A DNA stretch of 64,000 nucleotides from an uncultured Gemmatimonadales bacterium (lineage in GTDB: Bacteria > Gemmatimonadota > Gemmatimonadetes > Gemmatimonadales > Gemmatimonadaceae), in the NCBI GenBank assembly GCA_963707505.1, contig CAVPQB010000004.1:160001-224000 (forward strand), in the 5' to 3' direction. Positions 3,066-50,980 of the stretch are shown piece by piece. The position numbers and the translations under genes were made by a program. How positions within the stretch are numbered: the stretch's first letter is position 1; each line of letters opens with the position of its first letter. Under the pieces are notes generated by a model, which worked only from the letters and a program-made list of their open reading frames with translations, did no database searches and was not told the DNA's origin.

Positions 3066-3310
3066 TCAGCTCGATCGCCTATCGGCATCGCTGATGTTCT
3101 CCAGCACTGCTTCCGCATTCCTTACCAACCGACTCCTCTTCGCCCGCTTCACCGCTGACTTCTTGAACGCCACTCTTAACTCCTCGTCGTCTATCGCGAG
3201 AACCTCCACCGCCAAGGTGCGCGCATCCGTCTCCCTTACCACTTCACGCGCCGCGAATGCGGGTTTTGTAGCGTCACGTGAGAACTTGATGTTCCAGGAA
3301 CATACAGATT
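3066..3310 (-). pseudogene. queG: Displaced queG 3'-end copy 1
   Basis: QSVCSWNIKFSRDATKPAFAAREVVRETDARTLAVEVLAIDDEELRVAFKKSAVKRAKRSRLVRNAEAVLE aligns without gaps to the C-terminus of QueG at 38737..39708. Confidence 0.9.
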
Positions 3311-3441
3311 GGGACGTGTGCCGGTATACCCATTTTGAGATCTCGCTCTCGACCGGCGGGCGAACGCTTGCTGCGAAGATCCGCGTCGGAGCTCGAGTCG
3401 TGCACACGAGTCAAGCCGTCGACCCCGATTACCATCGGATG

Positions 3442-5562
3442 CTACTTCGAGTTCGCGCCGGGAGCGCAGGTCCGTGCTCCGATCAGCACTTGTGCGAACT
3501 GTGGCTTGTCGGCTGGTGGGAAGGGAACCTTCCCGGCCCCTGCGGGCTTGATGCAATCGTACGCGAGCATGTACGCCATGACGTTGGCGTACGAGGCGGG
3601 AGAGAGCGATCCTGGAGCGGTGAGTGGCATCCGTTGCACCACCGCCGCGCGGAATTGCGACGCATTGAGGTGCGCGCGCGCGATGCCGGCTCCGGTGAGC
3701 GCAGGCGCGGACACACCCTGAAGTTGCGCGCCATGGCACGACGCGCAGTTGGTCGTGTACACCGTCGCGCCACTCGCGACCTGCTGCGCGGTGTACGGGA
3801 GCGAGTCCGATGCGGCGAGACCGGACTCCGTCGCGCCGCCGCGTACTGATGCCGCGAGCGCGGGCTGTCCAGTTGTGTCGTTCACGGTCGCGTGTGTCGG
3901 ACCGAGTTGGTACACGATGACGCGACTGCCGTGCGGGGCCGGAAGATTGGGTGTCTGCTGGTTTCCCGCGCGGCCCACCATCAGCGCGAGCTGTTCCTTG
4001 CCGTCGAGCATGAACGCGGAGATTGGGGCGACGATCGCGGAGCCCGTGTTCGTTTTCCAGAGCTGCTTGCCCGTCGCGACGTCGAGCGCGTAGACATTTC
4101 CGCCGAGATCGCTGGTGAAGACCAGCCCCGTCGCGGTGACGAGCGCGCCGCCCTCAGCGGGGTATGGCAGCGTGATGCGCCACCGGACGTGCCCCGTCGC
4201 CACGTCTACCGCGGTCACCACGCCCGTGCCATTCTCTCGCTTCGGGAGCGGTCCGCCGGCGTAGTTCTGTCCCGGGATGTATTCCGGCGTCTCGGTCTGC
4301 AGCTTCCAGATCCCGCATTCCTGCGTGCTGGGAACCACGAACAGATTGGATGACGGATCGTACGCACCGCCGTTCCACTCGACGCCACCGCCATGATTCG
4401 GACACGCGCGTGTTCCTTTCAGCGTCGGCACGGTTGTGGCCAGCCCAGTCTGGTCGCTGACCGCGAGCTGGTGTACCACCGTGCCAGTGCTCTGATCGAG
4501 GATGAGGAAGTTCCCGGCCTTGTCACCAACCGCGACCAACGCGCGCGGCGCACCGGAGACCTTTCCGCTGAATAGCACCGGGATCATGGCCGGATCGGCG
4601 TCGTGCGTGTCGTTTGCGATGATCTGGTGATACCATTTCACCTTCGGTACCGAGCCACTGATGTCGAGGGCGACGATCGAGTTGGAGTAGAGATCCGCGC
4701 CCTCGCGTCCCTTGAGCACCATGTCGGGCCCGGGATTGCCGGGCGCGACGAAGAGCGTGTTCGTTACCGGATTGATTGCGACTCCCGACCACACCGCCGC
4801 CGCGCCGTGAACCCAGGAGCTGTCCTTCCACGTATCACGCTTGAGCGTTTCCCAGTTCCACAGCCTCTTCCCGTCGCTGGTGCTGAACGCGCTCACGAGT
4901 CCCCGATTCCCATTGTCGCCGCCGGCTGTGCCGACAATGACGGCGCCTCGGTAGACGTACGACGCCATGGAGTACCAGCTGTTGGTCGTGTCGCGACATC
5001 CGACGACGTTCCACACGGGCTTGCCCGTGGCCACGTCGAGCGCGATGACGTGACAGTCCTGCGTCGCGACGATCACACGCCCGCCATCGACGCCAACGCC
5101 CCGATTGGCGGCGAATGCGAACACGAACGGACTGTATGGAAACGCCCACTTCAGCTGTCCTGTGTGCGCATCCAGCGCAAGCACATTGTCGTGTGGCGTC
5201 GCCACGTACATCGTGCCGCCGGTGATGATCGGCGACGCTTCCTGTTCACCGTCGTCGCGAATTCGAGTCTCCCATCCTTCGCCGAGCGACGCGACATTCG
5301 CGGACGTGATCTGTGTCAGCGGTGTGTAGCGATTGCCCTCGTACGTCCGCGCGGGGAGAACCCATTCATTGGCGTTCTGACTGGCGCGAAGGAGTTGATC
5401 ATTCGTCGTACCTGCACGTTGCCGTGCCTCGTTGCATGACGGGAACGATACGGCTGCCAGTGCGGTGGGTGCGATGAGCGTGATTGCGCGCCGCGTCCAC
5501 CAGCGGTGGGGAGCAGGGCTCGTTAGAGGCGGTTGCGTGTGCTTCGACGATGTCGACACCAT
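3442..5562 (-). CDS. PQQ-dependent dehydrogenase with C-terminal cytochrome c (quinohemoprotein-like)
   Basis: RYTPLTQITSANVASL, ANRGV, GAAAVWS, GNPGPD, YSNSIVALD, WYHQIIANDTHDAD, GGALVTATGLVF; Trp-docking PQQ repeats; CASCHG heme motif. Confidence 0.9.
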   Translation of the reverse strand: MVSTSSKHTQPPLTSPAPHRWWTRRAITLIAPTALAAVSFPSCNEARQRAGTTNDQLLRASQNANEWVLPARTYEGNRYTPLTQITSANVASLGEGWETRIRDDGEQEASPIITGGTMYVATPHDNVLALDAHTGQLKWAFPYSPFVFAFAANRGVGVDGGRVIVATQDCHVIALDVATGKPVWNVVGCRDTTNSWYSMASYVYRGAVIVGTAGGDNGNRGLVSAFSTSDGKRLWNWETLKRDTWKDSSWVHGAAAVWSGVAINPVTNTLFVAPGNPGPDMVLKGREGADLYSNSIVALDISGSVPKVKWYHQIIANDTHDADPAMIPVLFSGKVSGAPRALVAVGDKAGNFLILDQSTGTVVHQLAVSDQTGLATTVPTLKGTRACPNHGGGVEWNGGAYDPSSNLFVVPSTQECGIWKLQTETPEYIPGQNYAGGPLPKRENGTGVVTAVDVATGHVRWRITLPYPAEGGALVTATGLVFTSDLGGNVYALDVATGKQLWKTNTGSAIVAPISAFMLDGKEQLALMVGRAGNQQTPNLPAPHGSRVIVYQLGPTHATVNDTTGQPALAASVRGGATESGLAASDSLPYTAQQVASGATVYTTNCASCHGAQLQGVSAPALTGAGIARAHLNASQFRAAVVQRMPLTAPGSLSPASYANVMAYMLAYDCIKPAGAGKVPFPPADKPQFAQVLIGARTCAPGANSK

Positions 5563-5577
5563 AGGGAGTGTTCGAAC

Positions 5578-6252
5578 TCAGGTGGCCTGTGACCGGTCGT
5601 CCGCCGCTGTCCCCCCGCGCCGACGCGCCGTCGGGAGCTGCCAGTGGTTCCGCATCGCCATGACGCGCAACCCGATGCAGAGCGCGGCGCCAGCGATGCT
5701 GACGATCCCGGATGGGAGCTGGAGCCCGCGGCCGATCACGACGACGGCTGCGCCCGCGAGCGCCGCGACGGCGTAAAGATCCGCCCTCAGAATTACAGGA
5801 ACTTCCGACACGAGAATGTCGCGCGCCACTCCGCCGCCGACGCCGGTCACGACGCCGAGCAGCACCGCAGTGAGCGGCGCGAGATGAAAGGCAAGCGCCT
5901 TCGATGCACCGGTGACGGCGAACAGTCCGAGTCCCATGGCATCGAAGAGCAGTACCGAATTCCAGAGCCGGTCGACGAACGCCCCCCAGTAGAACGTGAC
6001 CAGGCCTGCGACGAGCGCCGCGGTGATGTAGCGCCAGTCCGCGATGCCTGGCGGCGGCACGGCGCCGATCAGGAGATCACGCGTGATTCCGCCCACGTTC
6101 GCCGCGGCGAACGACAGCACGAGCACGCCGAAGATGTCGAGCCGGTGCTTGACGCCGGACATTGCACCACTCAGCGCGAAGACAAACGTGCCGAGCAGAT
6201 CCAGCACCAGGGTGAGGGTGCTGATTGTGATCGGCGGAATGAGTGGCTGCAT
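5578..6252 (-). CDS. Trimeric intracellular cation channel family (UPF0126, YadS/YicG-like) membrane protein
   Basis: DLLGTFVFALSGA, LDIFGVLVL, GGITRDLL, DAMGLGLF, GVGGGVARDIL duplicated motifs. Confidence 0.92.
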   Translation of the reverse strand: MQPLIPPITISTLTLVLDLLGTFVFALSGAMSGVKHRLDIFGVLVLSFAAANVGGITRDLLIGAVPPPGIADWRYITAALVAGLVTFYWGAFVDRLWNSVLLFDAMGLGLFAVTGASKALAFHLAPLTAVLLGVVTGVGGGVARDILVSEVPVILRADLYAVAALAGAAVVVIGRGLQLPSGIVSIAGAALCIGLRVMAMRNHWQLPTARRRGGTAADDRSQAT

Positions 6253-6256
6253 GCGT

Positions 6257-7525
6257 TCAGGAATGCAGCCAGGCCTGTGCCGCCGTCACCATGGTCTCCA
6301 CACCAGTGTGCAGCGTGGGATCCAGCACCGGGGCAAAGCGCGGGTTGTGATTGGTCGGGATCTCGTTGGTCTTGCCTGCCGCTTTGGCTTTCGCATAAAG
6401 CTCCGGGTCGGTTCCGCCAACGAACCAGAACACCGATGGAACGTGCCACTCGGTGCCGAAGGATCCGAAATCTTCGCTTGCGGTTGATGGCTTGGTTTCC
6501 ACGACCTCACTTGCGGGAAAGTACGCCCGAAGCGCATCGACGACACGTTTCGTCGCGGTCGCATCGTTCACGAGGAGGGGATAGCGGTCCAGCGGTGTGA
6601 TGTCAGGCGTTTTGGGTGCGCCGGATGCCTCCGCTTCTGCGTTCACGATCCGCTTGATGGCAGCGAGCACACGCGTGCGCACGTTCTCGTCGAAGGTGCG
6701 CACGTTCAATTTGATGGTCGCATTGTCGGGGATGACATTCTCTTTCGTACCGGCCTGCAGCGCGCCGACGGTGACCACGGCGGCATCTGTCGGAGCGACC
6801 TCACGCGACACGATCGTCTGAAGACGCATCACCAGAGCGGCCGCCATCACCACGGGATCGATGCTGGCCTGCGGCATGGACCCATGGCCGCCGCGACCGA
6901 ACAGCGTGATCTGCAGGCTGTCGCCAGCCGACGTCATGACGCCGCTGCGCCAGCCGATGGTACCGGCGGGAATGCTCATCACGTGTTGGCCGAGAATTAC
7001 ATCTGGTTTCGGGAATCGCGCGAGGAGTCCGTCATCGATCATCGCCCGCGATCCTTCGGCGGTCTCCTCCGCTGGCTGGAAGACCGCCATGAGCGTCCCC
7101 TTCCAACCCGTGCGAACCTGTGAGAACAACGTGGTCGTGCCGATCAGCCATGTCACGTGCATGTCGTGACCGCACATGTGACCAACGGGCGTCGTGTTCC
7201 CATCCCGGTCCTTCGCGACGACGGCACTTGCGTACGGAAGTCCGGTCGCTTCCTTGATTGGCAGCGCGTCCATGTCGGCGCGCAGCATCACGGTGGGGCC
7301 GTCGCCATTTCGCAGCAGTCCGACGACGCCGGTCTTACCGACGCCGGTCGTCACATCGAAGCCCACCTTGCGGAGCCTGTCCGCCGCGATGCCCGCTGTG
7401 CGAGTCTCCTGCATCGAGAGCTCGGGGTGCGAGTGAATGTCGGTGTAGATCGACTTCAGGTCGGGGAGCAGTGCCGCGAGCCCGGCAAGGACAGGCTCCG
7501 CCGGGCGTTGAACAGGTGTTGTCAT
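6257..7525 (-). CDS. M20 family amidohydrolase (hippurate hydrolase-like)
   Basis: HSHPELSMQE, LRADMDALP, HMCGHDMH, FQPAEE, GRGGHGSMP, SEDF, TNHNPRF. Confidence 0.93.
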   Translation of the reverse strand: MTTPVQRPAEPVLAGLAALLPDLKSIYTDIHSHPELSMQETRTAGIAADRLRKVGFDVTTGVGKTGVVGLLRNGDGPTVMLRADMDALPIKEATGLPYASAVVAKDRDGNTTPVGHMCGHDMHVTWLIGTTTLFSQVRTGWKGTLMAVFQPAEETAEGSRAMIDDGLLARFPKPDVILGQHVMSIPAGTIGWRSGVMTSAGDSLQITLFGRGGHGSMPQASIDPVVMAAALVMRLQTIVSREVAPTDAAVVTVGALQAGTKENVIPDNATIKLNVRTFDENVRTRVLAAIKRIVNAEAEASGAPKTPDITPLDRYPLLVNDATATKRVVDALRAYFPASEVVETKPSTASEDFGSFGTEWHVPSVFWFVGGTDPELYAKAKAAGKTNEIPTNHNPRFAPVLDPTLHTGVETMVTAAQAWLHS

Positions 7526-7671
7526 GATCGATAACCTCGCGGGCGCCACGGCGCCCAGAGTGTCATGGTGAGAGCAACCGAAGGCGTGCACGATATGTGC
7601 CCGTAAAGGGCGCGCCGACGCTGTTCGATCCTTTGCGCCTTCCCCACGACTACGTAGAGCAGTCGCGCTCT

Positions 7672-7781
7672 TTCAAGGGCGATGCCCGGCGGGAACAGTG
7701 ATGGGTCACGTGCACCTCCACGTTGGTGACGTAGCGACAGCGTTGAGGTTCTTTGCCGAAGGCTTGGGTTTCGATCGCACT
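7672..7781 (+). pseudogene. VOC / catechol-2,3-dioxygenase (CatE-like) C-domain fragment
   Basis: FKG/MPAGTVMGHVHLHVGDVATALRFFAEGLGFD motif with a frameshift; no flanking domain. Confidence 0.7.
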
Positions 7782-8327
7782 GTGGGCGGATTCATGCGCC
7801 AATCGGATTCCACCAAGGGACAGATGGTTTGTCCCGGATTGACAACGCGCCACGTGCCGGAGCATGGCGCGCAAGCGAAAACGGTGAAGACATGACGACA
7901 ACGGTTGGCAGCACCGAGGAGCGAGCGGCTGATTGCGAGACCAGGATGCAGCTCAGGATTTTGGTTTTGCGTGCGGCGCTGCGAAAAGATTCGCTAAATG
8001 TGCGGTTGGCTCGCCTTGCCGCGCAGGTCGCGACCTCGCAAGGCGCGATCGCGCGGCTAGCGGCGATGGGAGAGTTCAACTGCCCACCATACGATCATTA
8101 CAACAGCGCTTCGAAGATACGACTCGCTGTTTCATGCATCTCGTGGAAGCGGCGAAACACCATCGTGGTCTCAAGAAGCAGTGGATCGAGTTTCTCGGCG
8201 AACAGCCCAATTCGGCCGTCGATCTGGTCGAGACGAGCGATGTCGAAGGCGAGCCTGCGGCGGCCTGAACTGAACTCCAGTGCAGCTCGTCGGCTAGGGA
8301 AGGTCTGAAGAACTTCGGAATGGATAC

Positions 8328-9361
8328 TCATGCTGTGATCTTCGCGCTGTCGCCCGCAGTGACTTCGTAAGTAGAGCCGGATACCATGGTCGCCGCATCG
8401 GAGGCAAGAAAGACAACTACAGGAGCGATGTCGTTCGGATCGATCCACGGCACGCCCAACGGGCTCGATTTTGCGAGTTCTTCACGCGCTGACTGTTCGT
8501 CCTTTGTGACATCACCGGTTGGCGTTTTGCCGCTCGTTTGCAAGGCTTGCGCATAGCGCTCCTCATGACGCGTGAGAGGCGTATCAACCAGTCCCGGAAC
8601 CAGGCAGTTCACGGTAATGCCACTTTTGCCCAGCTCGAGCGCGGCGGACTTCATCAGACCAATGAGTCCCCACTTCGACGCAGAGTACGCGCTGGCGTTG
8701 AAAGTCCCGTGCTGCCCCTGTGTGGACGTGGTGATGATCATGCGGCCCCTCTTGCGCCGCACCATTGCGGGCCCGAAGGCGCGCAAGACATTAGCTGTGC
8801 CGGTGAGGTTGGTGTCGATGGTGATGTGCCAGTCGGCGTCCTCCATCTCCATCAGGGGGTGGAACTGCTGAATTCCGGCGTTGGCGAACAGGATGTCGAC
8901 CGCGCCAAACGAGGACTCGATACGCTCCGCAGCCGCGCGCAGCGCCGGAAGGTTTCGCTGGTCGACAATATGCGACTGCCACTTGACCCCAAGCGTCTCG
9001 ACCAGTCTGCCGGTCTCCGCAAGGTCCTGCGGTGTCGAAGGCGTGACACCGGAGCGGGGATCGACGACTGCGCAGATGTCGAGCCCCGCTACGTTTGCCC
9101 CTGCGCCGGCGAGGGCAAGCGCGGCTGCACGGCCGATGCCACGCGCCGCACCGGTGACGACGGCGGTCTTGCCTTTCAGCGCGGTTGAAAGAAAGGTGTT
9201 GGTGGAGGGCTTATTGGCGGGACTGCCTGGCATCGGGTTCTCCGGGGACAACGACTGGAATGCGTGCGCCACAGTCGAGTTGCTGGATAGGAGCAGGGCC
9301 GCTGAGGCCTGCGTGACAAAAGCTCGACGAGTAAGCTCCGGTTCTTGGAGGGGTCTCGCAT
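8328..9361 (-). CDS. SDR family oxidoreductase, probably Tat-signal bearing (apparent frameshift right after ATG 9361)
   Basis: GKTAVVTGAARGIG, FANAGI, YSASKWG, VNCLVPGLVDTP; in-frame upstream ELTRRAFVTQASAALLLSS. Confidence 0.9.
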
Positions 9362-9487
9362 TTTGACCTACCGACGTCGGGTGAACTACAAGATGGGAAC
9401 AGCCTTATCTGGAATGGTGTTGATCTCAGCTTCAGACACGTGGGCGTGGGCCACGGCGACCTGCATCGGCACCGCGCGCATTGGTGA

Positions 9488-9677
9488 GGAAGTCCATAGT
9501 CCGCGCATCTTCTGTACCGTTGAAGACGATCATGCGGACTTGTCGTGAGATCCAGAACTGCCGCTCGCTTGCGTTTGAGTGCCAGTGCAGCTCGCGAATC
9601 GCTTCCGGCTTCAACGTGACGATGCCGCCCGAAGTCTTTGGCGAAGCGGGGAAGTTCTTCACGTCGATGATCTTCAC
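9488..9677 (-). pseudogene. Oxalate decarboxylase-like bicupin fragment
   Basis: KIIDVKNFPAS...VTLKPEAIRELHWHSNASERQFWISRQVRMIVF...ARTMDF matches the OxdC second cupin motif RELHWHxNxxEW; truncated at both ends. Confidence 0.8.
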
Positions 9678-10066
9678 GTTGCATTTTCCGCTGGAACGTG
9701 CGTCGCATCGTGCTTGTGTGGAATGTGTGTGGTGACCTGGTGGGTCCGCGGAGGATCACCACCGAGCGCTCGGCGCGGCGATATCTGCGTGACGGTACTC
9801 GACATTCCATGTGGCGCTCGCCGCGCTGGCGTGGTGCGGTCGAATACCGGACGCGGCCGTTCACACATTCCCGCATTCACATCTTTGGCTTATCCGCCGC
9901 GAGCGCTTCCGTATTTATCCCCAGCCAGACATCGGGCGCCGCGGATTGCGTGGGCACGACCTTGCTTACACCGCGAATCGTGAGCACCCCCCCAGCCGCG
10001 GCAGGCGCGGGAAATGCAGGCGGTCGTTTGACAGTGCATCCGTCACTTCATCAACGGAAGGAAACC

Positions 10067-10504
10067 GTGGCGAACGAAGAACGCAACATGCAGCTCATGC
10101 AGACCCTGGACGATGCTTGGAACGCGCAGGACATGGGTACCTTCGACAAGCGCCATCGTAAGGAAGTTGTGGTGCGCTGGCCGGGAAAAACGCCCACCAA
10201 CGGAATCGATGCGCACCACCAGGAGGCGATCGATTTCTTCAAGACATTTCCGGATCAGCACCTCGTCAATCGCCCGTATCGTGTCTTTTTCGCGAACGGC
10301 GACTGGACTTGTTCGATCGCTCACTTCACCGGCACCATGACGGGCCCAATGCAAGGGGCCGACGGCAAAGTGATTCCACCAACCGGCAAGGGATTCGACG
10401 TGGACTTCTGCACCGTGGCTCACTGGGACAAGGATGGTCAGATCATCGAAGAGAACCTCTTCTACGACCTCGTCACCTTCATGCATCAGATCGGACTCGG
10501 ATAA
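10067..10504 (+). CDS. SnoaL-like ester cyclase / polyketide cyclase family protein
   Basis: GTG start after GGAAGGA; LDDAWNAQD, FFKTFPDQHL, FTGTMTGPM, IPPTGKGFDVDFCTVAHW, IIEENLFYD. Confidence 0.88.
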   Translation: MANEERNMQLMQTLDDAWNAQDMGTFDKRHRKEVVVRWPGKTPTNGIDAHHQEAIDFFKTFPDQHLVNRPYRVFFANGDWTCSIAHFTGTMTGPMQGADGKVIPPTGKGFDVDFCTVAHWDKDGQIIEENLFYDLVTFMHQIGLG

Positions 10505-10547
10505 GAATCCGATCGCGCAAGGGCGCGGTAACCGGGGGATTGCACAA

Positions 10548-11008
10548 CATGACATCGCGTCCAGAATCCGTAGCTGTGGTACCACGCACAATGCCGCGGA
10601 TCGCCACCGTCGACGAGCGTTACGAATCTTACAACGTCGAGGTCGCGGAAGTCATCGCCGGCTAATGGGCACGACGTTGTTCACGCTGGTCCGTCTCGGG
10701 AGGGGCTGCATCTCCATGCACCGTGCGTGCGCGGGCACCCGGGCGGCGTAACACTGCTGGCGATTAACAACAGCCAAACGCAGGCCTCGTCGCTTCAGAT
10801 CCCAAGCGCTGCGGAGCGTTATACCTTGAGCGCGCAGCAGCTCGAGGCCACCGACATCGAACTCAATGGACATGAACTGACGTTGGGAGCTAACGATGCG
10901 TTGCCGGAGCTTCAAGGGACGAGTGTTCCGGCCGGAACCGTAACGCTCGCACCGGCTACCAGCACGTTCCTCACGATTGCGGATGCACGAGACGCGAGTT
11001 GCCGATGA
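10548..11008 (+). pseudogene. Internally deleted paralogue of the GH79-like gene at 12790..14484
   Basis: PRTMPRIATVDERYESYNVEVAEVIAG is fused directly to RRLMGTT...RGHPGGVTLLAINNS...DASCR; the middle ~1.1 kb is absent. Confidence 0.9.
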
Positions 11009-11069
11009 CACTGCAGAGTGACGTCCCGGTTCCATGCAGGTTTCGATGCTCGACGTGAACATCGAGAAT

Positions 11070-12536
11070 TCAGGCCTGCGTCTTGGTTCCCTTGGGCACT
11101 GTGAGCATGATCGAGACTATGGACACCACGACCATCAGCACGTTGAAGCCGAGCGCAATGATGGCGGCCTCCCGGACGGCAAGGTTGTCCTGGCGGCCGA
11201 GGAAGGTGATTACGCCGTCGAGCCAGTTCGCGCTCGCATTGTTGCCGCTCAGCGCAGTGAAGATCGCAGCGGAAATCGCCACGCCGAAGGCGGCGCCAAG
11301 CGACGACGCCATCTTGTAGATGCCCGAACCAGAACCCGTCTGTGTAGCTGGCAGGTTCGATAACGCGGCATCGGTTGAAGGGGTCGCGTAGAACGCCAGA
11401 CCGACACCGAACAGCGTATAACCGACGCTCGCGAGGATCTTGTAGTCCGACAGCCGCAGGTTGGCGGGTGACACCAACAGGATTGCCAGGCCCGTGATCA
11501 GGCAGCCCCAGATCATCGGTTTGCGCGGCCCGAAGCGTTGCAGAAGTTTCTCGCCCACTCGAATGAAGGCGATGATGGCGATCGCGTAACCGAGCGTCAA
11601 AAAGCCGGCCTGTTGGGCGTTCATGTTGCCGCCGAGCTGCACCAGTTGTAGCGACACGATCTGCGTACCGGCGGTCCCGTTGATCAGGAAGTTGGAGATC
11701 GTCGCGCCGGTGAATGTTGTGTTCCTGAACAGGCTGAAGTCGAAGAACGCATTGGACGCTCTGTTCTCGATGCGGAAAAACAGCCAGCCGAACACTACCG
11801 TTACCGCGAGGAGAACCAGACCAGTCGGACTGCTCCAGCCCAGCTTGTTGCCCTGCGTCACAAGTACTTCCAGTGCGACCATCGTGATCATGAACGCAAG
11901 CACGCCGGACAAATCGAACTTGTACGCGCCCGTTGTTTCCGCCTTGCTCTCGGGGGTGCCACGCATCATCCACAGTCCGAGCACGCTCACAGCGATGGCG
12001 ACCCAGAAGATGGAGCGCCAGCCAAAGTTCTGCGACATCAGGCCACCGACCAGCGAGCACAGGCCCGAACCGCCCCAGGAGCCGATCGACCACATGCTGA
12101 TGGCGCGCTGGCGCTCGGGACCGTCCCAAAAAGCTTTTACCAGCGCCAGACTGGCCGGCATGATGCAGGCGGCTGACAGCCCTTGCAACGCACGGCCCAC
12201 AAGCAGGACTGCTGTTGCCAACTGACCCTGCGGCGTGATGGCCACAAGCAGCGAGCCGGCGATGCTCAAGTAAAAGCCAATGCGAGTGACCTTCACCCGA
12301 CCAACCCGATCGGCCAACCCACCCATCACGACGATGAAGATGCCCGAGAACAGCGAGGTAATGGCCACCGCAACGTTCATCATGCTCGCATTCACGCCAA
12401 GGTCGCGGCTCATGTCAGGCGCGATGTTGAGCGTCGTCTGGGCAAACAGCCAGAACGCGACGACACCCATGATGATGCCGAACAGCAGTCGATCGTTGCC
12501 CTTGTATGGCATCGTCGATTGAGCAACGGTATTCAT
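11070..12536 (-). CDS. MFS transporter, DHA2 (NorB/NorC-like) family
   Basis: LFGIIMGVVAFWLFAQTTLNIAP, GGLADRVGRVK, GRALQGLSAACIMPASLAL, YATPSTDAAL, GIYKMASSLG; GGAG RBS before ATG 12536. Confidence 0.92.
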   Translation of the reverse strand: MNTVAQSTMPYKGNDRLLFGIIMGVVAFWLFAQTTLNIAPDMSRDLGVNASMMNVAVAITSLFSGIFIVVMGGLADRVGRVKVTRIGFYLSIAGSLLVAITPQGQLATAVLLVGRALQGLSAACIMPASLALVKAFWDGPERQRAISMWSIGSWGGSGLCSLVGGLMSQNFGWRSIFWVAIAVSVLGLWMMRGTPESKAETTGAYKFDLSGVLAFMITMVALEVLVTQGNKLGWSSPTGLVLLAVTVVFGWLFFRIENRASNAFFDFSLFRNTTFTGATISNFLINGTAGTQIVSLQLVQLGGNMNAQQAGFLTLGYAIAIIAFIRVGEKLLQRFGPRKPMIWGCLITGLAILLVSPANLRLSDYKILASVGYTLFGVGLAFYATPSTDAALSNLPATQTGSGSGIYKMASSLGAAFGVAISAAIFTALSGNNASANWLDGVITFLGRQDNLAVREAAIIALGFNVLMVVVSIVSIMLTVPKGTKTQA

Positions 12537-12789
12537 ACGGGTCTCCATTGCGACGGCGCTGGCTTGACAGCTCCGTCGCCGAGAAAACAACCGGCGATGT
12601 GAGCTGCTTCCTGGCCTGACGGAGTATCTACAATCGCTGCGCGCCCAGCAAGTGTATGGATGGGACGACGACCGCTTTTGCGCCGGCAGCAGCAAGTGGG
12701 ATCACCTCTTGCAGTGACGTGCGCCAGGCGAGTACCGCGCACTGTGATTTTGCCTTTGAGTCCGGTCGCCGCCCATCTCTGGAAGGGAA

Positions 12790-14484: not shown

Positions 14485-14598
14485 CCTCAGCCGCTCCGCG
14501 CAGTCGAGCGTGCGTATCAAATCCGTGTTGCGGGCCTCGCGAGACGATTTTCCCGCCGGAGTTGCGCCTGCATCTGCTGCGCTCTTTTTGCTCTCGCG

Positions 14599-27050: not shown

Positions 27051-27081
27051 CCCGCCGCGGGAAAGCGGTCAGGGTGTAACT

Positions 27082-27118: not shown

Positions 27119-27163
27119 GTATTCTTCCCCCCCGTCCCAGCAAACCAGCTCCCAAGCTCCTGC

Positions 27164-30942: not shown

Positions 30943-31200
30943 AGCGTAGTGACCGTGTAACGCCTTGCGTCGTCCGCGGCTGCCGCGGATATTCTGCCCG
31001 GCGGTGCCACTCATCCTCCTGAGCCGAGCGCACACATAGCCACGTCCGCTGAACCAGGATCTGTATGACGCTCCACGAACTCTTCGAGAAGGCTCGCGCT
31101 CGTTGAGTACGTCGGTGACGCGAGTACTGGACTTCTCACATAGTCATCCCTTAATGGCGTGCAGTTACAAGGCCGGTCTATTGCTCCGCGCGCACCCCGC

Positions 31201-33857
31201 ATGAACGCGGACGCCGTCAACCTCGAGCGTCTGATGGGCGCCCTCGCCGACCGTTACGCGATCGAGCGCGAGCTTGGGCAGGGTGGAATGGCCACGGTCT
31301 ACCTGGCACGCGACCTGAAGCACGACCGGCATGTCGCGGTGAAGGTGCTTCACCCGGATCTGGCTGCTGTCGTGGGTGCTGCCCGTTTCCTCGCCGAGAT
31401 TCGGACGACGGCAAATCTGCAGCATCCACACATCCTCCCACTTCACGATTCGGGTGACGCCGATGGATATCTCTTCTACGTCATGCCGTACGTGGACGGG
31501 GAAACGCTTCGCACCCGGCTCACCCGCGAACGTCAGCTTCCGATCGCCGATGCGGTGAGGATCGCACGCGAGGTGGCAAGCGCGCTCGATTACGCACATC
31601 GTCATGGTGTTATCCACCGCGACGTGAAGCCTGAGAACGTGCTGCTTCACGACGGCAGTGCACTCGTAGCTGATTTCGGTATCGCACTCGCAGTGCAGCA
31701 GGCTGGTGGCGTTCGCATGACACAGACCGGCCTGTCGCTCGGCACTCCGCAGTACATGTCGCCCGAGCAGGCCATGGGTGAGAAGACCATCGATGCGCGC
31801 ACCGACATCTACGCCCTCGGCGCCGTGACATACGAAATGCTCTGCGGCGACCCGCCGTTCACCGGTTCGAGCGTGCAGGCGATAGTCGCGAAAATGATGA
31901 CTGAGCGTCCCACACCGCTCAGCACTCTGCGCGACACCGTGCCGGCGAATGTTGAGGATGCTGTACTGACCGCACTCGCAAAGTTGCCCGCCGATCGCTT
32001 CACCAGCGCGGCACACTTCGCGGACGCGCTCGTCGTCGTGGAGGCGCGCGGCTCAACGGGAGTATCACGCGCGCAATCGCCAAGCGCAACGCGCTCGCGG
32101 AGGCTGGTGGGTGGCCATCGCAGCCGCGCTCATGCTCGGAGCCGCGGCCGGAGTCTGGGGATCATGGCTGCGGCGTCCGAGTGCTGACGATGCTGTGCTC
32201 CGAACGATGATTGCCTTTCCATCGGGACAGGCGGTCGAGGCCGCGCCTCAGGGGAACAGCTTTGTCCTCTCCCGCGATGGAACCGTCCTCGTCTACTGGG
32301 GACCGTCGACCGGCGATAGCCATCATGCTCTGGTCGCGTCGGCTCGACCAGCTTAACGCGACCCCGATTCGCGGCACCGAAGGCGGTGTGCTGCCTGTTC
32401 TCTCGCCCGACGCGCGACAGGTGGCGTTCGAGAAGTTGACCGACCGCAAGATACGAGTCGTTCCGATCGAAGGAGGCGTGCCACGGATCGTCGTCGACTC
32501 GGCCCGTCGCGGCGGACTCGATTGGGCGGCGGATGGGAAACTGTATTATCGGGCGACGAGCGACGGCCTGAACCGCGTTCCCGCCGCGGGCGGAGTTTCG
32601 GAAACGCTGATTCAACCACCAACCGACGCGGGTGTCGGCATGGGCTACTTCTGGCCGCAGGTGCTCCCCGGTGGCGATGCGCTCATCGCGTCGTTTCGCC
32701 CGTCGAGCGGCGACAATGAAGCGTCGCGCATTGTCGCGATCCCGCCGGGCAGCCAAAAGTCCGTCGACATCGTCGCCGGCGTCTACGCTCGATACGCGCC
32801 GACGGGCCAGCTGGTGTGGGCCACTGCCGACGGAGCGGTCTACTCGGCGCCATTCAACACGCGTACCTTCGCGATCGGTGCGCCGACGCGAGTGCTCGAG
32901 CACGTCCGGGTCGAGAGCGCATTCGGATCTGCGGATTTCAGTTTCTCGGATCGTGGCCGGCTCTTGTATCAGCTCGGCGACGCGAGCGGTGGTGATCTGG
33001 TCTGGGTCTCGCGTGCGGGGACGATCACGCCGCTGGGCGTCGACGGGATGCAGGCGGGACTGGGGGGTGGCATGGGAATCTCTCCCGATGGCCGGTCGCT
33101 CGGTGTAAGCCGCGTGTCGGGCGGGGAGGAGGACATCTGGGTAAAGGCTCTTCCGGATGGAGCGCTCACACGCCTCACGACATCCGACTCGCCGGACATT
33201 TGGAGCGGCTGGACCCCCGATGGCCGCTACATCGCATTCATTCGGCGCGGAGTACTCTACCAGCGGGCAGCGGATGGAACCGGTAACGACAGTTTAGTCT
33301 TGCGTCGCCCCACGCCGATCATGGATGCGTCCTGGAGTCCGGACGGGCAGTGGATCGCAATCGTTGAAGCACCGACTCACATCGCGCTTGTGCGGCGCGG
33401 CGACTCGACGGCTCGCGTACTCTCGGAAGGCGCACGGTTCGCGGAGGATGGGCCAACCTTCTCGCCCGATTCGCGCTGGCTCGCGTACGCGTCGACCGAA
33501 TCCGGGCAGTCGGAAGTGTACGTCCGACCGTTCCCCGATGTGAACGCGGGCAAGTGGCAGGTCTCGATCGGTGGAGGTGGCGCGCCGCGCTGGTCACACT
33601 CAGGACATGAGCTCTTCTATCGGACCAAGGGCTCTCGTCTCATGTCCGCCGCGGTCCGAACGTCGCCCGAGTTCGGCGTCATCCGTCGCGACTCGCTTAC
33701 GCCGGCTGCGACCCAAGCGGTTGGCATCAGCGCCGACCCATTCGCGGTCGGTATGAACGATCAGCAATTCCTCGTCATTCGCTCGCGCGACCAGGGTCAG
33801 GGTCTGGTGCTCGTCGAGCATTGGTTCGACGATCTCGCGCACCAGTCTGGTCCGTAG
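31201..33857 (+). CDS. Ser/Thr protein kinase with TM helix and PD40 propeller (frameshifts near 32110 and 32320)
   Basis: GQGGMATVY, HRDVKPEN, DFG, GTPQYMSPEQ; FSPDSRWLAYASTESGQSEVYVRPFP...KWQVSIGGG..PRWS. Confidence 0.92.
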
Positions 33858-34044
33858 CTGTGTGCACATCACGTGACGTGGGGTGTGACTATGCCTCAAA
33901 CAGCGCTCACTTTGCGCGCACAGAGTTGATCTGCGTGTCGCGGCATGACCACGACTCTGACGTGGCTTGCAGTCGTGTGGGGCCGCTGCTGGTCACAACT
34001 GTCCGGTTGCCGCACCAGCCACGAAATCGTACGTTGGTGTCTCG

Positions 34045-34718
34045 ATGACATCCACCGCCGATCCGCTCGACACGCTGCGCAGCGCGCTCGCGGACCGCTA
34101 CACGATCGAGCGCGAGCTTGGCGCGGGTGGCATGGCGACGGTGTATCTCGCGGAAGACATCAAGCACCATCGCAAGGTTGCGATCAAGGTGCTGCACGCG
34201 ATCTCCTTTTCTCCGGACGGACGCTATCTACTTGTCGAACTCGCGTTGACGCAACCAGATGCGTCGCGCGTTCGGGCATACGCGGTCCCACTCAGCAAAA
34301 CCGGAGGCGCCGCGACCCAGCCGATCCCGGTTCTCGAAGGGCCGGCGATGTTCACGCCCACCGTCTCACCGAACGGCAAGTGGCTCGCGTACACGACCAC
34401 GGCGGGCAATCGGCTGGAGGTGTCAGTGCGTTCCTTCCCGGCCGGCAACTCTTCTACCGAATCCACAGCACGTTCAGGGTCGCGACGCTCGACCTTCGCG
34501 GCGCCATGCCGCGTGTCGTTCGCACCGACTCGCTCTTCACGAGCGATGCAGCAGAGCAGCTTGTCAACCGCAACTATGACGTGCAGGGTGACGGCAAGCG
34601 CTTCGTCGTGGCGCGAGACGCGGGCGACGGTGCCAAGCTCATCGTGGTGACTAACGGTCCCGGTGAAGTTCTGACGAAAATCCGTGAACAGTCGCACGGC
34701 GTCGAGCATGCCCGGTGA
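34045..34718 (+). pseudogene. Kinase-propeller gene relic with large internal deletions
   Basis: The first ~52 kinase residues (to VAIKVLHA) are fused to late propeller blades (SFSPDG, VSPNGKWLAY...VRSFP), then jump to RQLFYR...NYDV..DGKRFVV. Confidence 0.85.
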
Positions 34719-34755
34719 GCGACTCTGCATCTCAACTCGAGAGCGTGAGGCGCCG

Positions 34756-35523
34756 ATGGAAATCCACAAGCCAAACCCGATCCACAACTTCCGCGAGTTT
34801 CTGAAGGAAGTCGGCATCATCGTGCTCGGCGTGCTCATCGCGCTCGGCGCAGAGCAGACGGTCGAGGCACTGCACTGGCGCGCCAAGGTGCACGAGTCAG
34901 AACAGGCGATGCGAATCGAGCTCCGTGACGACGATGGACCGCAGGCGTTCACCCGCGCGGCGATCGAAGCATGCCTCGACCATCAACTCGATACCATTCA
35001 GGCCGCGGTGGAAGGTGGACGCGACCGCCGCGCGATCGCCGCTCTCGCAGACGCGTACACGCCGCCGACGCGCACGTGGGATGCGGAAGCTTGGCGCACC
35101 GCCGTCGCGTCAGATGCAGCGTCGCACACGTCGGCTGATCGCATGGTGACGTGGTCCAAGCCTTATCGGCTGCTGCCGGTGCTCGAAGCGACGAACCTCG
35201 CGGAGAACTCGGAGCGAATAGAGCTTCAGCCGACGCGCCGAGCTGGAGGACCGCTCTCAGGTGCCGAGCAGGACCGGATGCTGTCCGCCGTCGCGAGACT
35301 TCGCGAGGCGAACCACATGATGGCCAGCTGGTCCCGGGCCACCCTGCTCGGCCTTTCTAGAAACAAAATCGCCGTTGCGCGGGACAATCAGGCGCGCATC
35401 CTTGCCGGCTTTCGCAATCGATACGGCAGCTGCGTCGTCGCGCCGTCATTCAGCGGCGTCGACCCCACCGACCAGCTGCGGGATGCGGCGGGTGACAGGC
35501 CAGCAACTTCACTCAGTCGCTGA
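34756..35523 (+). CDS. Hypothetical single-TM protein, 'MEIHKP' paralogue 2
   Basis: MEIHKPNPIHNFREFLKEVGIIVLGVLIALGAEQ; GAGG RBS. Confidence 0.8.
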   Translation: MEIHKPNPIHNFREFLKEVGIIVLGVLIALGAEQTVEALHWRAKVHESEQAMRIELRDDDGPQAFTRAAIEACLDHQLDTIQAAVEGGRDRRAIAALADAYTPPTRTWDAEAWRTAVASDAASHTSADRMVTWSKPYRLLPVLEATNLAENSERIELQPTRRAGGPLSGAEQDRMLSAVARLREANHMMASWSRATLLGLSRNKIAVARDNQARILAGFRNRYGSCVVAPSFSGVDPTDQLRDAAGDRPATSLSR

Positions 35524-35547
35524 ATCTCGTGAGCGCCGATCGGCTTT

Positions 35548-35610
35548 GAGCATGCGGGCACCCTTGTTCGCGAGAAACTCGCGCGCTGTGAACGCGGGCT
35601 CCTTCAGCTC
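35548..35610 (-). pseudogene. queG: Displaced queG 3'-end copy 4 (short, diverged)
   Basis: ELKEPAFTAREFLANKGARML vs QueG DATEVAFAAREVIAGKDARTL and copy 1 DATKPAFAAREVVRETDARTL. Confidence 0.65.
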
Positions 35611-35714
35611 GTGTTCTGATCCTGCTCTCGGACGTGTGGCCACGCTGGCGGTGACGTGCCCGCCCGGTATATTCGCCCGACTACGTTTCCCTCCCGGCCA
35701 CTCCAGACGCAGTC

Positions 35715-35948
35715 ATGCCCGACCTCCTCCGCGACCAGCTCCAGACCGCGCTCGGACTGGCCTACACGCTCGAGCGCGAGCTCGGCGGTGGCGGGATGTC
35801 GCGCGTGTTCGTCGCGCGCGACGAAGCATTGGGTCGTGATGTCGTGGTCAAGGTCATCGCACCGGGGAAGGCGGAGGGGCTCAGTGCTGAGCGGTTCGCG
35901 CTCGAGCCGGCGCGCGTTGCACCGCGCACTGCTGTGATCGCTCGATGA
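35715..35948 (+). pseudogene. N-terminal fragment of a Ser/Thr kinase of a different subfamily
   Basis: MPDLLRDQLQTALGLAYTLERELGGGGMSRVFVARDEALGRDVVVKV...LSAERFALE, then truncated. Confidence 0.88.
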
Positions 35949-38596
35949 TCTCGATTCCGGACCGCCTGAGTGCCGCGCTTTCAGATCGCTACACCATCGA
36001 GCGCGAGCTTGGCGCGGGCGGCATGGCGACTGTGTATCTCGCGGAAGACGTCAAGCATCATCGCAAGGTCGCGATCAAGGTGCTGCACGCGGAACTCTCC
36101 GCCATTCTCGGACCCGAGCGCTTCCTCAAGGAGATCGAGCTCACGGCGAACCTGCAGCATCCGCACATTCTGCCTTTGTTCGACTCAGGATCCGCTGACG
36201 GACTGCTCTACTACGTGATGCCGTACGTGGAGGGTGAAACGCTCCGGCGCCGGCTCGAGCGCGAGCACCAGCTCCCGATTGCCGACGCGCTACGCATCGC
36301 GACCGAGGTCGCCGACGCACTGGAGTACGCGCACAAGCGCGGTGTCGTGCATCGCGACATCAAGCCCGAGAACATTCTCCTGCACGACGGCCGCGCACTC
36401 GTCGCGGATTTCGGGATAGCGCTCGCTGTGGAGCAGGCTGGCGGACAGCGGATGACGCAGACGGGTCTCTCGCTGGGCACGCCGCAATACATGTCGCCCG
36501 AGCAGGCCATGGGCGAGCGGAATGTCGATGCTCGCACCGACATGTACGCGTTGGGAGCAGTCACGTATGAGATGCTGGTCGGTGAGCCGCCGTTCACCGG
36601 ACCGACGACGCAGGCAATCGTCGCGCGCGTCATCACGGAAGAGCCGCGCGCGCTCGTCCCGCAGCGGCGCAGCATTCCGGAATCTGTAGAGGCCGCGGTA
36701 CTCACCGCGCTGGAAAAGCTACCGGCGGATCGGTTCGGGAGCGCGGCCGAATTCGCCAGGAACCTGCAAGCCGATGGACCGGTGCAGCGTACTGGCTCAA
36801 GGCTGCGTCAGGCACCGGGCCGCGCTATTCGCGTCCCGTTCATCCTCGCACTGCTCGCCGCATCAATTGTCGTCGCTGTCGTCGCGTTCTTCGCGGGACG
36901 CCGTACCGCGACAGGAGCGCTGCCCGTCACGAGCTTTGGTCGTGCAACAAAGGTGACGTGGGATCCCGGGCTCGAGATCGCACCAGCGCTCTCGCCCGAC
37001 GGACGCAGCGTGGCATATGCATCGGGCAACATGGCAAGCATGCGGATCTTCGTGCGGCAGGTGAGCGGCGGCCGCGCTCTCGCGCTCACAGACGATTCGC
37101 TGGATGTCCAGACGGACCCGCAATGGTCGCCGGATGGCACACGGATCCTCTTCCTTGCCCAGGGTGGCGTGTTCAGCGCACCGGCGTCGGGCGGAAGCGC
37201 GCGACCGGAGCTGCCCGCGACACCAGGTGAAATCGTTGTCTCGGCTGCGTGGTCGCCAGATGGACAGGGGATCGTGTACACGATTGCCGACTCCGTGTTC
37301 ACGCGTACTGCAGCGGCACGGTCGCATCTGCTCGCGCACTTGCCCGAGCCCGCACTCTGCCGCTGGGCACCCGGCGGTGCGCTCATCGCGTGCGCTTCCG
37401 GCAACGCGTTCTACTCGCGCGTGGGCCGCTTCTTCGGCAATATGTCACCGAGTCGCGTGATGGTCATCCGCGTGCGCGACGGCGCGGTGGTCCCTGTGAC
37501 CGACAGCACGTCGATCAATCAGAGTCCGGCCTGGTCGCGCGACGGCCGCTGGCTGTACTACCTCTCCAATCGGCTCGGTCCGCGCGACATCTACGCACTC
37601 CGAATCAACAGCGACGGCCACGCCGAAGGCGCACCCGTGCGTCTTACTACCGGACTGGACGCGCACTCGATCTCGACATCGGCGGATGGGACGCACTTCG
37701 CATACGACCGCCTGGTGGAGACGTCGAACGTCTGGTCGCTGCCATTTCCGCCGCGTGGCGCGAGCGAGGCTAGCGCCACGCAGGTGACCAGCGGGACACA
37801 GGTGGTGGAGGAAGCCGAGCCGTCAGTGGACGGCAGGTGGCTGTACTACGACTCCAATGTGAGCGGGACGTCCGAGCTCTACCGGATGCGTCTTCCGCGC
37901 GGCGTGCCGGAGCAGCTCACGTTCGATAGCACCGACGATTTCTCGCCTATGCCATCGCCAGACGGCACAAAGGTGGCCTTTCATTCCTGGCGCTCGGGAT
38001 CGCGCGACATCTACGTGCTCCCGCTCGACGGCGGTCCCGTGCAGACGGTCACGAGGTCGCCCGCACAGGAGTCGAAGCCGCAGTGGTCCCCGGACGGCAA
38101 GTCGATCACGTACACACTGTACGGCGGCGGCGGCGTCTACATCGTGCACCAGAATCCGAACGGCACGTGGGGAACACCGACCAATCGCACGAAGCTCGCC
38201 GCTACGTCCTACCTCACATCGTGGCCAACCTGGTCTCCCGACGGTCACTGGATCGCGTACAGCAATGCTCTGCTGGGCGGATCGTTGTTCATGATCGACC
38301 CCGACTCCGGTGCGCAACACACCATGCTCGACTCAGCGAAGAGCCGGATGGACGCAGAGTACCCCGTTTGGAGTGCCGACAGCCGCACGCTGTATTTCAA
38401 GTCGCACGACGCGAAAGGAAACGCGGAATTCTGGTCCATGCCGATCAACGGCGGCGCGCCGACGCTGCTTGCGCATTTCGATGACCCCGACCGTCCGTCG
38501 TATCGCCCCGAATGGAGCATCGGCGCTGGTCGCATGTACTTCACGATCGCCGACCTTCAGAGCGACGTCTGGGTAATGCAGACGTCGCCGCAGTGA
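35945..38596 (+). CDS. Ser/Thr protein kinase with TM helix and TolB-like/PD40 propellers (intact)
   Basis: 883-aa ORF; GAGGMATVY, HRDIKPEN, DFG, GTPQYMSPEQ; many PxWSPDG repeats. Confidence 0.95.
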   Translation: MISIPDRLSAALSDRYTIERELGAGGMATVYLAEDVKHHRKVAIKVLHAELSAILGPERFLKEIELTANLQHPHILPLFDSGSADGLLYYVMPYVEGETLRRRLEREHQLPIADALRIATEVADALEYAHKRGVVHRDIKPENILLHDGRALVADFGIALAVEQAGGQRMTQTGLSLGTPQYMSPEQAMGERNVDARTDMYALGAVTYEMLVGEPPFTGPTTQAIVARVITEEPRALVPQRRSIPESVEAAVLTALEKLPADRFGSAAEFARNLQADGPVQRTGSRLRQAPGRAIRVPFILALLAASIVVAVVAFFAGRRTATGALPVTSFGRATKVTWDPGLEIAPALSPDGRSVAYASGNMASMRIFVRQVSGGRALALTDDSLDVQTDPQWSPDGTRILFLAQGGVFSAPASGGSARPELPATPGEIVVSAAWSPDGQGIVYTIADSVFTRTAAARSHLLAHLPEPALCRWAPGGALIACASGNAFYSRVGRFFGNMSPSRVMVIRVRDGAVVPVTDSTSINQSPAWSRDGRWLYYLSNRLGPRDIYALRINSDGHAEGAPVRLTTGLDAHSISTSADGTHFAYDRLVETSNVWSLPFPPRGASEASATQVTSGTQVVEEAEPSVDGRWLYYDSNVSGTSELYRMRLPRGVPEQLTFDSTDDFSPMPSPDGTKVAFHSWRSGSRDIYVLPLDGGPVQTVTRSPAQESKPQWSPDGKSITYTLYGGGGVYIVHQNPNGTWGTPTNRTKLAATSYLTSWPTWSPDGHWIAYSNALLGGSLFMIDPDSGAQHTMLDSAKSRMDAEYPVWSADSRTLYFKSHDAKGNAEFWSMPINGGAPTLLAHFDDPDRPSYRPEWSIGAGRMYFTIADLQSDVWVMQTSPQ

Positions 38597-38736
38597 GCAG
38601 AAAGCGATCAGTTGATTCGCGAAGCCTCCGAAAAAAATAAGCGATATCTGAGTGCCACGATTGTGCTCGTCGCTGGACTCGCAACAGTCGGCACGAGAAC
38701 GGCTCACGCGGCGCCCGCTCCTCAGCCAGTTGCTGC

Positions 38737-39708
38737 TCAGCTGTCGTTTGATCTCGCTTTGAAGTGTTCCAATACCACTCGCGCATTCCGCTGCAAACCC
38801 GCGAGTTTCGCGCGCTTCACCGGCGACTTGCGGAACGCGGCGCTGAACTCTTCCTGCGACATCGCGAGCAGCTCTGTCGCGAGCGTCCGCGCATCCTTCC
38901 CGGCGATCACCTCACGCGCCGCGAACGCCACCTCCGTCGCATCCCTCGAAAACTTCACGTTCCACGGACACACGTCCTGACAAACATCGCACCCATACAG
39001 ATGCTCGCCAATCGCCTCGCGTAACGTTTCCGCAATCGGTCCCTTCTGCTCGATCGTCTGATACGAAATGCACCTCGTCGCATCCAGCACCCGCGGCGCG
39101 ACGAACGCGTTCGTCGGACACGCATCGAGACATCGTGTGCAACTTCCGCATCGGTCCATCTCGAATGGATCGTCAGCACGCAGCTCGAGATCCAGCAGCA
39201 GCTCACCGAGGAAGAAGAACGAGCCAAGCTCTGGATTGATCAGATTGGTGTTCTTTCCGAACCAGCCGAGTCCCGCGCGTCGCGCGAGATCGCGCTCCAG
39301 TATCGGACCGGTATCGACGTACGGCTTGCCGCGCACCGAATGGCCTGTCTCACTCTCGATCCACTGGTGCAGCTCGTTCAGCCTGTCGATCATCAGATCG
39401 TGGTAATCATCACCACGCGCATAACGCGCTACGGGTCCGGGCGGTTGCGTGCCGCCGTAATTCATCGCGACGACGACTGCGCTCCGTACTCCCTCGAATG
39501 GTCTCCGCGTGTCGCGACGCTTCTCGGCGCCGCGCTCCAGATATCCCATCTCGCCGGCGTAACCGGCGCTGATCCATTCGTCGAACCGATCGGCAGTTTC
39601 GACTTCACCCAGCGTTGCGATGCCGCAGAGATCGAAGCCGAGCTCGCGGGCGCGCACCTTGATGCGGCTTTCGATATCCATCGGCGTTTCCATCCCATGC
39701 TCGGTCAC
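38737..39708 (-). CDS. queG: tRNA epoxyqueuosine(34) reductase QueG
   Basis: ARYARGDDYH, YVDTGPILERDLARRAGLGWFGKN, GSFFFLGEL, CGSCTRCLDACPT, RCISY, YGCDVCQDVCPWN. Confidence 0.97.
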   Translation of the reverse strand: MTEHGMETPMDIESRIKVRARELGFDLCGIATLGEVETADRFDEWISAGYAGEMGYLERGAEKRRDTRRPFEGVRSAVVVAMNYGGTQPPGPVARYARGDDYHDLMIDRLNELHQWIESETGHSVRGKPYVDTGPILERDLARRAGLGWFGKNTNLINPELGSFFFLGELLLDLELRADDPFEMDRCGSCTRCLDACPTNAFVAPRVLDATRCISYQTIEQKGPIAETLREAIGEHLYGCDVCQDVCPWNVKFSRDATEVAFAAREVIAGKDARTLATELLAMSQEEFSAAFRKSPVKRAKLAGLQRNARVVLEHFKARSNDS

Positions 39709-50960: not shown

Positions 50961-50980
50961 TGGCGACCCGGAGATACGAC

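Follow-up and report, generated by a model that had tools for sequence, protein, structure and literature searches.

Integron-type attC arrays without an integrase consist of co-oriented, promiscuous, recombinase-free cassettes gathered at one chromosomal platform. The dusA-associated islands (PMC4482086) carry their own integrase and 19-28-bp attachment repeats, supply the gene with a replacement end and leave the displaced end at the far side; SGI1 inserts at trmE. In complex class 1 integrons with ISCR1, according to the model cited in PMC6834847, circles with a partial resident segment are rescued by homologous recombination, which leaves repeated partial copies. Here we analyse a stretch of 64,000 nucleotides from an uncultured Gemmatimonadales bacterium (GenBank assembly GCA_963707505.1, contig CAVPQB010000004.1, positions 160,001 to 224,000), called the window below, in which the gene queG is followed by four partial copies of its own 3' end with cargo genes between them. 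The queG arrays of Gemmatimonadota are likely to be an integron-like gene-capture system. This genome (assembly of 3.66 Mb, 83% complete) is referred to as G000, and other genomes and loci by G and L numbers.

How does the queG locus compare with the described systems? Its full-length copies are queG tails preceded by a conserved non-queG sequence, here called the arm, which meets the tail at the dinucleotide CA of a Gln codon. With the dusA islands and SGI1 it shares insertion within a conserved protein-coding tRNA-modification gene, an element-borne replacement end and a displaced end at the far side; unlike those elements, queG units carry a ~230-bp gene tail and a 54-76-bp arm, have no integrase that we could find, and form arrays of up to tens of units. 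Of the marks of a gene-restoring island, the element-borne queG end is seen in a G018 cassette, the displaced end in copy 1 and the empty site in G009, while an integrase of its own beside an att site was not found in ~285 loci, the serine recombinase hidden Markov model (HMM) having no independent positive control. Like integron arrays, queG cassettes are co-oriented, exchangeable and stacked at one chromosomal platform, and their cargo, read from the sequence without a family scan, appears rich in toxin-antitoxin-type genes and regulators. Unlike integrons, the queG platform has neither intI nor an attC hairpin and is a coding sequence rebuilt by each cassette, and the gene next to the arm is directed away from it in 101/154 cases. 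Repeated partial copies of a resident segment recall ISCR1, but most queG cassettes have no transposase and their sharp boundary lies at CA, not at an oriIS end. Tycheposon tRNA islands (10.1101/2020.12.28.424599) and integrase-free hotspots (PMC5635113) likewise grow by accretion at a single anchor, contain dispersed partial copies of the target and often lack an enzyme; unlike them, the queG anchor is protein-coding and nearly every full-length copy has a long conserved arm. One feature of large serine recombinase (LSR) systems, an inverted repeat centred on the dinucleotide CA, is present, and the LSR gene (PF07508) was not found in G000 or in five array-rich genomes, all of them incomplete. 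Our verdict is that queG arrays work like an integron built from gene-restoring islands, yet qualify neither as an integron, nor as an ISCR element, nor as an integrase-bearing island. A queG-targeting integration system was not found in the open full-text literature, though subscription papers, preprint supplements and island databases could list queG; there was no mention of queG in the available passages and supplement files of the LSR survey PMC10083194, or in one supplement each of PMC12884075 and PMC10111431.

The intact queG product belongs to TIGR00276 (QueG; 322 bits against a cut-off of 200), contains PF08331 and Fer4_16 domains and was aligned to PDB 5D08. A first-pass annotation, made by a model from the sequence alone, had reported four copies of the queG 3' end, co-oriented and different from one another, and all of this holds. 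Searches of the G000 assembly by tblastn and blastn gave three copies, at 22495-22286 (81% at the amino acid level), 3311-3096 (64%) and 16275-16210 (77%), all on the minus strand. The fourth was missed by BLAST and found at 35612-35547 by a nucleotide HMM made from 150 junctions of other genomes (E=1.3e-5, the best match outside the island having E=0.011). All four lie downstream of intact queG in one orientation, with pairwise identities among themselves and with intact queG of 64-78%. Genome-wide scatter, named at first pass as a sign that the idea was wrong, is not seen: BLAST found no further queG 3' copy beyond the island in the 3.66-Mb assembly. Mis-assembly, another worry, is unlikely, given independent assemblies and contigs from four sequencing studies. 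The two long copies do share a start point, both beginning at the Gln codon (22495 and 3311), although the coordinates first given were each one base short, and the 10-bp spacing between copy 1 and the ATG at 3055 is correct. A screen of G000 for duplicated gene ends within 60 kb returned queG and two apparent shadow open reading frame (ORF) matches.

That gene-restoring insertion into queG has occurred repeatedly, as the first-pass annotation proposed, is borne out by relatives. In G009 queG lies directly next to the orthologue of the gene at 2654-3055, an empty site of just the kind that had been suggested as a check, and in G015 and G016 different arrays lie between the same two genes. The window's QueG C-terminus (last ~30 codons, ~100 nt) and first cassette match the second-position unit of G018, with 98% identity from ~+140 onward; positions are numbered negative on the arm side of the CA hinge and positive on the queG-tail side. 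Element-borne restoration of the queG end is seen also in L030/L198 and L048/L316. Shared cassettes occupy different array positions in different genomes: the kinase block at 35613..38736 follows a tail copy in G018 but intact queG in G014, and in G016 the block that comes after copy 4 here (35548-34439) is the first one after intact queG. Cargo at 24196-33958 has 95.6% identity to G015, and the PAP2 block (within 3366..16185) is also found in G015 and G016. Copy 1 is likely the oldest displaced queG end. Its proposed status as the ancestral end is upheld by its tail and spacing, which align with the G009 empty site, but not by its queG part, which is no closer to G009 (65%) than is the present end (70%). 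The copies look less like scars of decayed autonomous islands than like pieces of small cassettes that have a conserved arm and no recombinase of their own.

The arm was missed at first pass. Copies 1 and 3 have ~54 nt of common non-queG sequence directly upstream, and its join to queG falls precisely on the CA with which the Gln codon of CxxC-Q-x-V-C-P-W begins; these are the only two places where the arm occurs in G000, and the nucleotide HMM detected none beside the short copies 2 and 4. We compared 279 distinct arm/CA junctions, mostly from Gemmatimonadota, and 39 intact-gene sites. Conservation begins near -58/-54 and continues to -1 in blocks with free positions in between, and 58 diverse arms align without gaps over 73 columns, the spacing being fixed across genera. 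The ratio of nonsynonymous to synonymous polymorphism (pN/pS) is 1.06 in the inner arm (-30..-1), 0.33 in queG tails and 0.20 in the intact gene; 137/228 tails are still open and 91/228 broken. Thus the arm is constrained as DNA and the tails as protein. The arm as a protein was considered and rejected, inner-arm pN/pS being about 1 and a search for longer proteins giving just two 319-aa QueG proteins. Centred on CA is the inverted repeat GACACA-N5-CA-N5-TGTGTC, in which -11..-6 pairs with +7..+12 (mean complementarity 0.80). The core reads TCCCAG or TCCCAA in 241/279 arm sites and TG[TC]CA[GA] in 38/39 intact queG sites, and the arm core has no resemblance to the dif-like site of the host, which is at C4:1227688 in G000. 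Farther out, at -76..-50, is a weak 27-bp palindrome (3.96 pairs of 11 vs 3.65 +/- 0.08 with shuffled partners); inside its zone the box YAANNNNTTG, which we take to be of the IHF type, occurs at -75 in 36/279 arms and once at any other offset. For TAAGYNNTTG, 3/36 matches in G000 fall within 32 bp of three tRNA genes. An outer-arm match near tRNA-Arg in G000 (E=0.14) is inside a gene and was dismissed as chance. Upstream of 240 arms there are 162 unrelated sequence families, joined at the same arm edge. An attC hairpin ending in GTTRRRY was not found by a folding test on 110 of 120 GTT junctions, where 0.15 passed vs 0.18 of shuffles, integron loci passing as controls. There are individual oddities: at L030:1854-1946 (G018) a fragment from the 5' end of queG (residues 18-48) stands where the outer arm would be, and at L029:15060-15983 (G012) the anchor queG is frameshifted at several places, from long-read error or as a pseudogene.

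Which segment travels as a unit? Linkage was followed in 23 families with shared upstream cargo and 16 with shared downstream cargo, near-identical tails or arms being dropped as unrearranged. In the upstream-cargo families the excess identity over background is 0.71 at -54..-27, 0.66 at -12..-1 (confidence interval (CI) 0.49-0.81) and 0.20 at +2..+13 (CI -0.01-0.42); the variable positions -10 (0.94 vs 0.54) and -5 (0.86 vs 0.58) are linked, +3..+5 barely. In the downstream-cargo families the arm is unlinked (0.00), and linkage climbs from 0.22 to 0.80 along the tail. Because the arm is kept to -1, linkage is lost by +3 and the downstream part is regained gradually, the unit is tail-cargo-arm, and its boundary is abrupt at CA but gradual within the tail. 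Crossovers against intact queG fall near +40 and at +146 to +152. Sequence-blind recombination in the near-invariant -25..+2 block would be expected to unlink -10 and -5, so that linked -10 and -5 beside unlinked +3..+5 would argue for a site-specific cut. By change-point analysis, the break is at or before +30 in 16/21 upstream pairs vs 1/15 downstream pairs (Fisher 4e-5).

The arrays are widespread but patchy. Within the genus, 15/21 other genomes have an extra queG tail or arm (one of the 15 is the unpublished G017; no other claim uses G017 or G007). The junction pattern occurs in at least 133 stretches of a species-genome collection, and among 129 stored junction loci, 117 have Gemmatimonadota titles, 10 belong to other taxa, possibly through mis-binning, and 2 are without taxon; a second junction pattern gave 59 metagenome stretches. 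Strict patterns found 5/201 class genomes and 20/301 family genomes. With an arm model, 44/151 family genomes gave a match at E<=0.01, and for 22 of these E was below 1e-4; of 19 matches inspected, 9 were followed by a queG tail, and two strong ones were half-arms without a tail. The largest number in one genome is 27 tail matches, some of which are split pieces. Orientation is uniform in 62/62 multi-site loci, and 87 junction spacings have a median of 3.25 kb, the shortest being 0.72 kb and the longest 16.5 kb, with degenerate copies perhaps skipped. Kinases are the largest cargo cluster (96/1146 genes). The arm had no match in viral contigs in three pattern scans, and none in plasmids. Outside the queG locus of G016, at L040:5200-11305, an ATPase-like gene lies between a stray queG tail and an outer half-arm, and the neighbours are a tyrosine integrase, tRNA-Arg relics and similar palindromes. 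That integrase was rejected as a candidate enzyme, being present in just 2/301 family genomes.

What enzyme might act at the arm? The first-pass remark that no integrase is visible can be extended to ~285 array loci. Custom HMMs for tyrosine and serine recombinases, run on 246 loci and later on a further 40 (2.4 Mb in sum, of which no more than 1.9 Mb is unique), found no intact enzyme of either kind; the sole integrase trace is one IntI-type relic, in L390. All recombinase queries together covered the tyrosine, serine, IS91, IS110 and RAYT families. Other candidates fell away: resolvase-domain genes occur in 6/21 genus relatives and do not track arrays, and the L043 integrase is in 0/40 relatives. 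IntI was not found in G000, and the IntI genes of relatives are on other contigs or far from arrays. Ordinary integron integrases, some with attC-like hairpins nearby, are present in L326, L335, L336 and L327, apart from queG arrays. Genes and relics of the IS91 family are frequent in arrays, though in a minority of loci. Since these elements possess ends of their own, are found at other places as well and are absent from several of the genomes with arrays, we treat them as passengers; no match was found in G228, G231 or 19/21 genus relatives, nor in G000, where the control of one search matched nowhere. IS91-family transposases lie directly after queG tails in L077, L106 and L120 and, at L334:6749-9050 (G023), right after the stop of what reads as a dnaE2-like gene, with no arm or repeated gene end found there. 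IS91-type oriIS ends occur as short tandem duplications in L077 (near 7980), L047, L063, L068 and L283, one of them cut short at the side facing an IS110 gene.

The account that we favour, at somewhat better than even confidence, is a cassette array served by a putative trans-acting recombinase that crosses over at CA, with homologous recombination within the tail. The cassette would be a recombinase-free unit of ~230-bp queG tail, cargo and conserved 54-76-bp arm. Crossover between two arm/CA sites would release a tail-cargo-arm circle, which may enter intact queG at its CA or by a RecA-type crossover within the tail; homologous recombination there could provide entry or later conversion. By either route the last Fe-S cysteine of QueG would be preserved together with the C-terminus, while cassettes already present would be displaced away from the gene. 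Because each insertion would leave one intact-gene site and one arm/CA site, the process could repeat without limit and the array grow. Tyrosine recombinase sites are marked by a conserved spacer of 6-8 bp between inverted half-sites. For the putative enzyme a tyrosine recombinase is weakly favoured over a serine one, because of the near-invariant TCCCA[GA] core of arm sites and the -75 box shared with tRNA-adjacent DNA. It is conceivable, though we hold this tentatively and with real doubt, that the arrays are a second, independently evolved integron-like system on a phylum-specific platform, in which the tail of a housekeeping gene would be a self-renewing landing pad and the 76-bp arm would be read by a recombinase of new class or specificity that captures cargo at the outer edge and shuffles it at CA.

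Several observations weigh against a recombinase at CA. Symmetric homologous recombination with 2-3 events per pair also predicts the change-point asymmetry (0.73-0.86 vs 0.23-0.11), identity alone would place ~45% of crossovers in -30..+30, and 3/21 upstream pairs break at -54 to -79 and 4/21 beyond +120; nor are the families and pairs phylogenetically independent. The model does not account for the joining of new cargo to the outer arm edge. Covariation in the inverted repeat is not seen, and the arm consensus fold is empty. No circle junction is present among the joints listed in the assembled contigs of four runs. The recombinases found in G000 itself are XerC, XerD and one integrase in a foreign-looking contig end, the latter in 0/40 relatives; PF07508 and PF00239 have no match in this 83% complete genome, and PF07508 is in 0/5 array-rich genomes, which are incomplete. 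That contig end (C4:1400000-1438271), possibly chimeric or foreign, contains pieces of IS110 and relics of integrases along with genes that do not resemble those of the host. Deeper contig coverage of the kinase block than of the queG body, and a contig end at 38977 beside CA, were not counted as evidence because contig depth includes other organisms.

If no array encodes a recombinase, might homologous recombination alone move the cassettes, the arm being left over from a single ancestral island end that was joined to queG and kept similar by homogenisation? Many downstream breaks do lie inside the tail, a min/max effect reproduces the change-point asymmetry, and hotspots that lack an integrase but recombine through the core genes on their flanks are common (PMC5635113). 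Yet free positions separate the invariant blocks of the arm, arms of different genera show no indels, upstream linkage is undecayed through the most identical block (-25..-1) and then falls within ~6 nt, and 162 different cargo ends meet one arm edge; we consider this explanation unlikely. Somewhat less probable again are classical tandem islands, in which CA is the insertion point of rare autonomous elements that encode a queG-specific integrase, and the cassettes derive from these elements by decay or loss of autonomy. The single IntI-type relic in ~285 loci, the absence of the arm from viral scans and plasmids, spacings down to 0.72 kb and the rarity of the integrase beside the G016 stray tail all count against such elements, even though replacement and displaced ends are as in the dusA islands (PMC4482086), tycheposon-driven islands keep partial target copies while their elements are transient (10.1101/2020.12.28.424599), and the -75 box is found beside tRNA genes too.

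An ISCR-like process, in which an IS91-family HUH transposase uses the arm as oriIS/terIS and rolling circles with a tail are rescued by homologous recombination into queG, has the ISCR1 precedent (PMC6834847) and the frequency of IS91-family genes and relics in arrays to recommend it. A matrix of 23 oriIS sequences moreover has its best fit to the antisense strand of the arm at precisely the register that was predicted (permutation p=0.0035), but its mean score is negative (-6 bits), closely related pairs show no break at -40, where linkage continues to -1, and the independent ends, other locations and patchy presence of the IS91-family elements also disagree; we regard the process as improbable. 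Of very low probability, and largely refuted, is that arm and tail form a small expressed protein gene or that the repeats are an assembly artefact. Copy 1 does lie within a 113-aa ORF and the outer arm has some third-position variation, but the inner-arm pN/pS and the broken tails argue against a gene, and the same structure in many independent assemblies against an artefact. The cassette array with a putative recombinase in trans thus remains the account that we prefer.

Table 1. Features of the queG array in the window, from the anchor gene to the gene that closes the array.
Feature	Position	Strand	Basis or remark
Intact queG, array anchor	38737..39708	-	CA hinge 38979-38978
First-cassette cargo: Ser/Thr kinase with PD40 repeats (35945-38596, +) and kinase fragment	35613..38736		Pfam
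Copy 4: queG tail relic, truncated, arm not detected	35547..35612	-	nhmmer E=1.3e-5
Cargo: kinases and kinase relics, OmpA protein, two ice-binding-like proteins	22572..35546		Pfam
Arm of copy 3 (-54..-1 = 22549-22496) and weak 27-bp palindrome zone (-76..-50)	22496..22571	-	
Copy 3: queG tail from Gln codon, one internal stop	22280..22495	-	
Cargo: broken cytochrome c peroxidase, YtkA-like, AraC, flavin monooxygenase, DUF6010, GNAT relic	16276..22279		Pfam
Copy 2: distal queG tail, residues 287-308, arm not detected	16186..16275	-	blastn E=1.6e-9; nhmmer E=6e-13
Cargo: PAP2, FMN reductase, GH79, MFS, SnoaL, SDR, M20 peptidase, PQQ dehydrogenase, relics	3366..16185		Pfam
Arm of copy 1, conserved	3312..3365	-	
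Copy 1: open queG tail	3066..3311	-	10 bp short of next gene's ATG at 3055
Membrane-protein gene, conserved, closes array	2654..3055	-	adjoins queG in G009

The membrane-protein gene matched no Pfam or NCBIfam family. The G+C content of the island (0.638) lies between those of the flanks (0.611 and 0.652), so that composition is no marker of the island. There was no Rfam match in window positions 1-42000, and there are no tRNA genes in the window. The ice-binding-like (PF11999) genes are at 23052-25903, one with a PEP-CTERM sequence and one with internal repeats, and G012 and G015 have part of this region too. Between 27164 and 38596 lie at least three Ser/Thr kinase-PD40 genes and frameshifted relics, and at 49230-55317 there are broken, probably frameshifted, TonB/SusC-like and BNR-repeat genes. 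Elsewhere in G000, at C2:77964-80946 and 112541, a tRNA-Cys gene is accompanied by two 43-nt fragments 32-35 kb away and, at C3:599903-606419, a tRNA-Pro gene by one 29-nt fragment; these loci appear to be other island hotspots without evident integrase.

What does the queG array mean for these bacteria? It is a gene-capture hotspot defined to the base in an abundant, barely cultured soil phylum, and its arm/CA site is a precise DNA substrate for finding the missing enzyme. Many bacterial hotspots are without integrases and their turnover is unexplained, according to PMC5635113; the queG hotspot, with its conserved site and with crossover positions that can be measured, opens the turnover question to testing. 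If the products of a reaction serve as its substrates again, cargo could be stacked repeatedly at one locus, which would be of interest for genome engineering. For the bacteria themselves, the C-terminal quarter of QueG is exchangeable, and this bears on the annotation and phylogeny of QueG.

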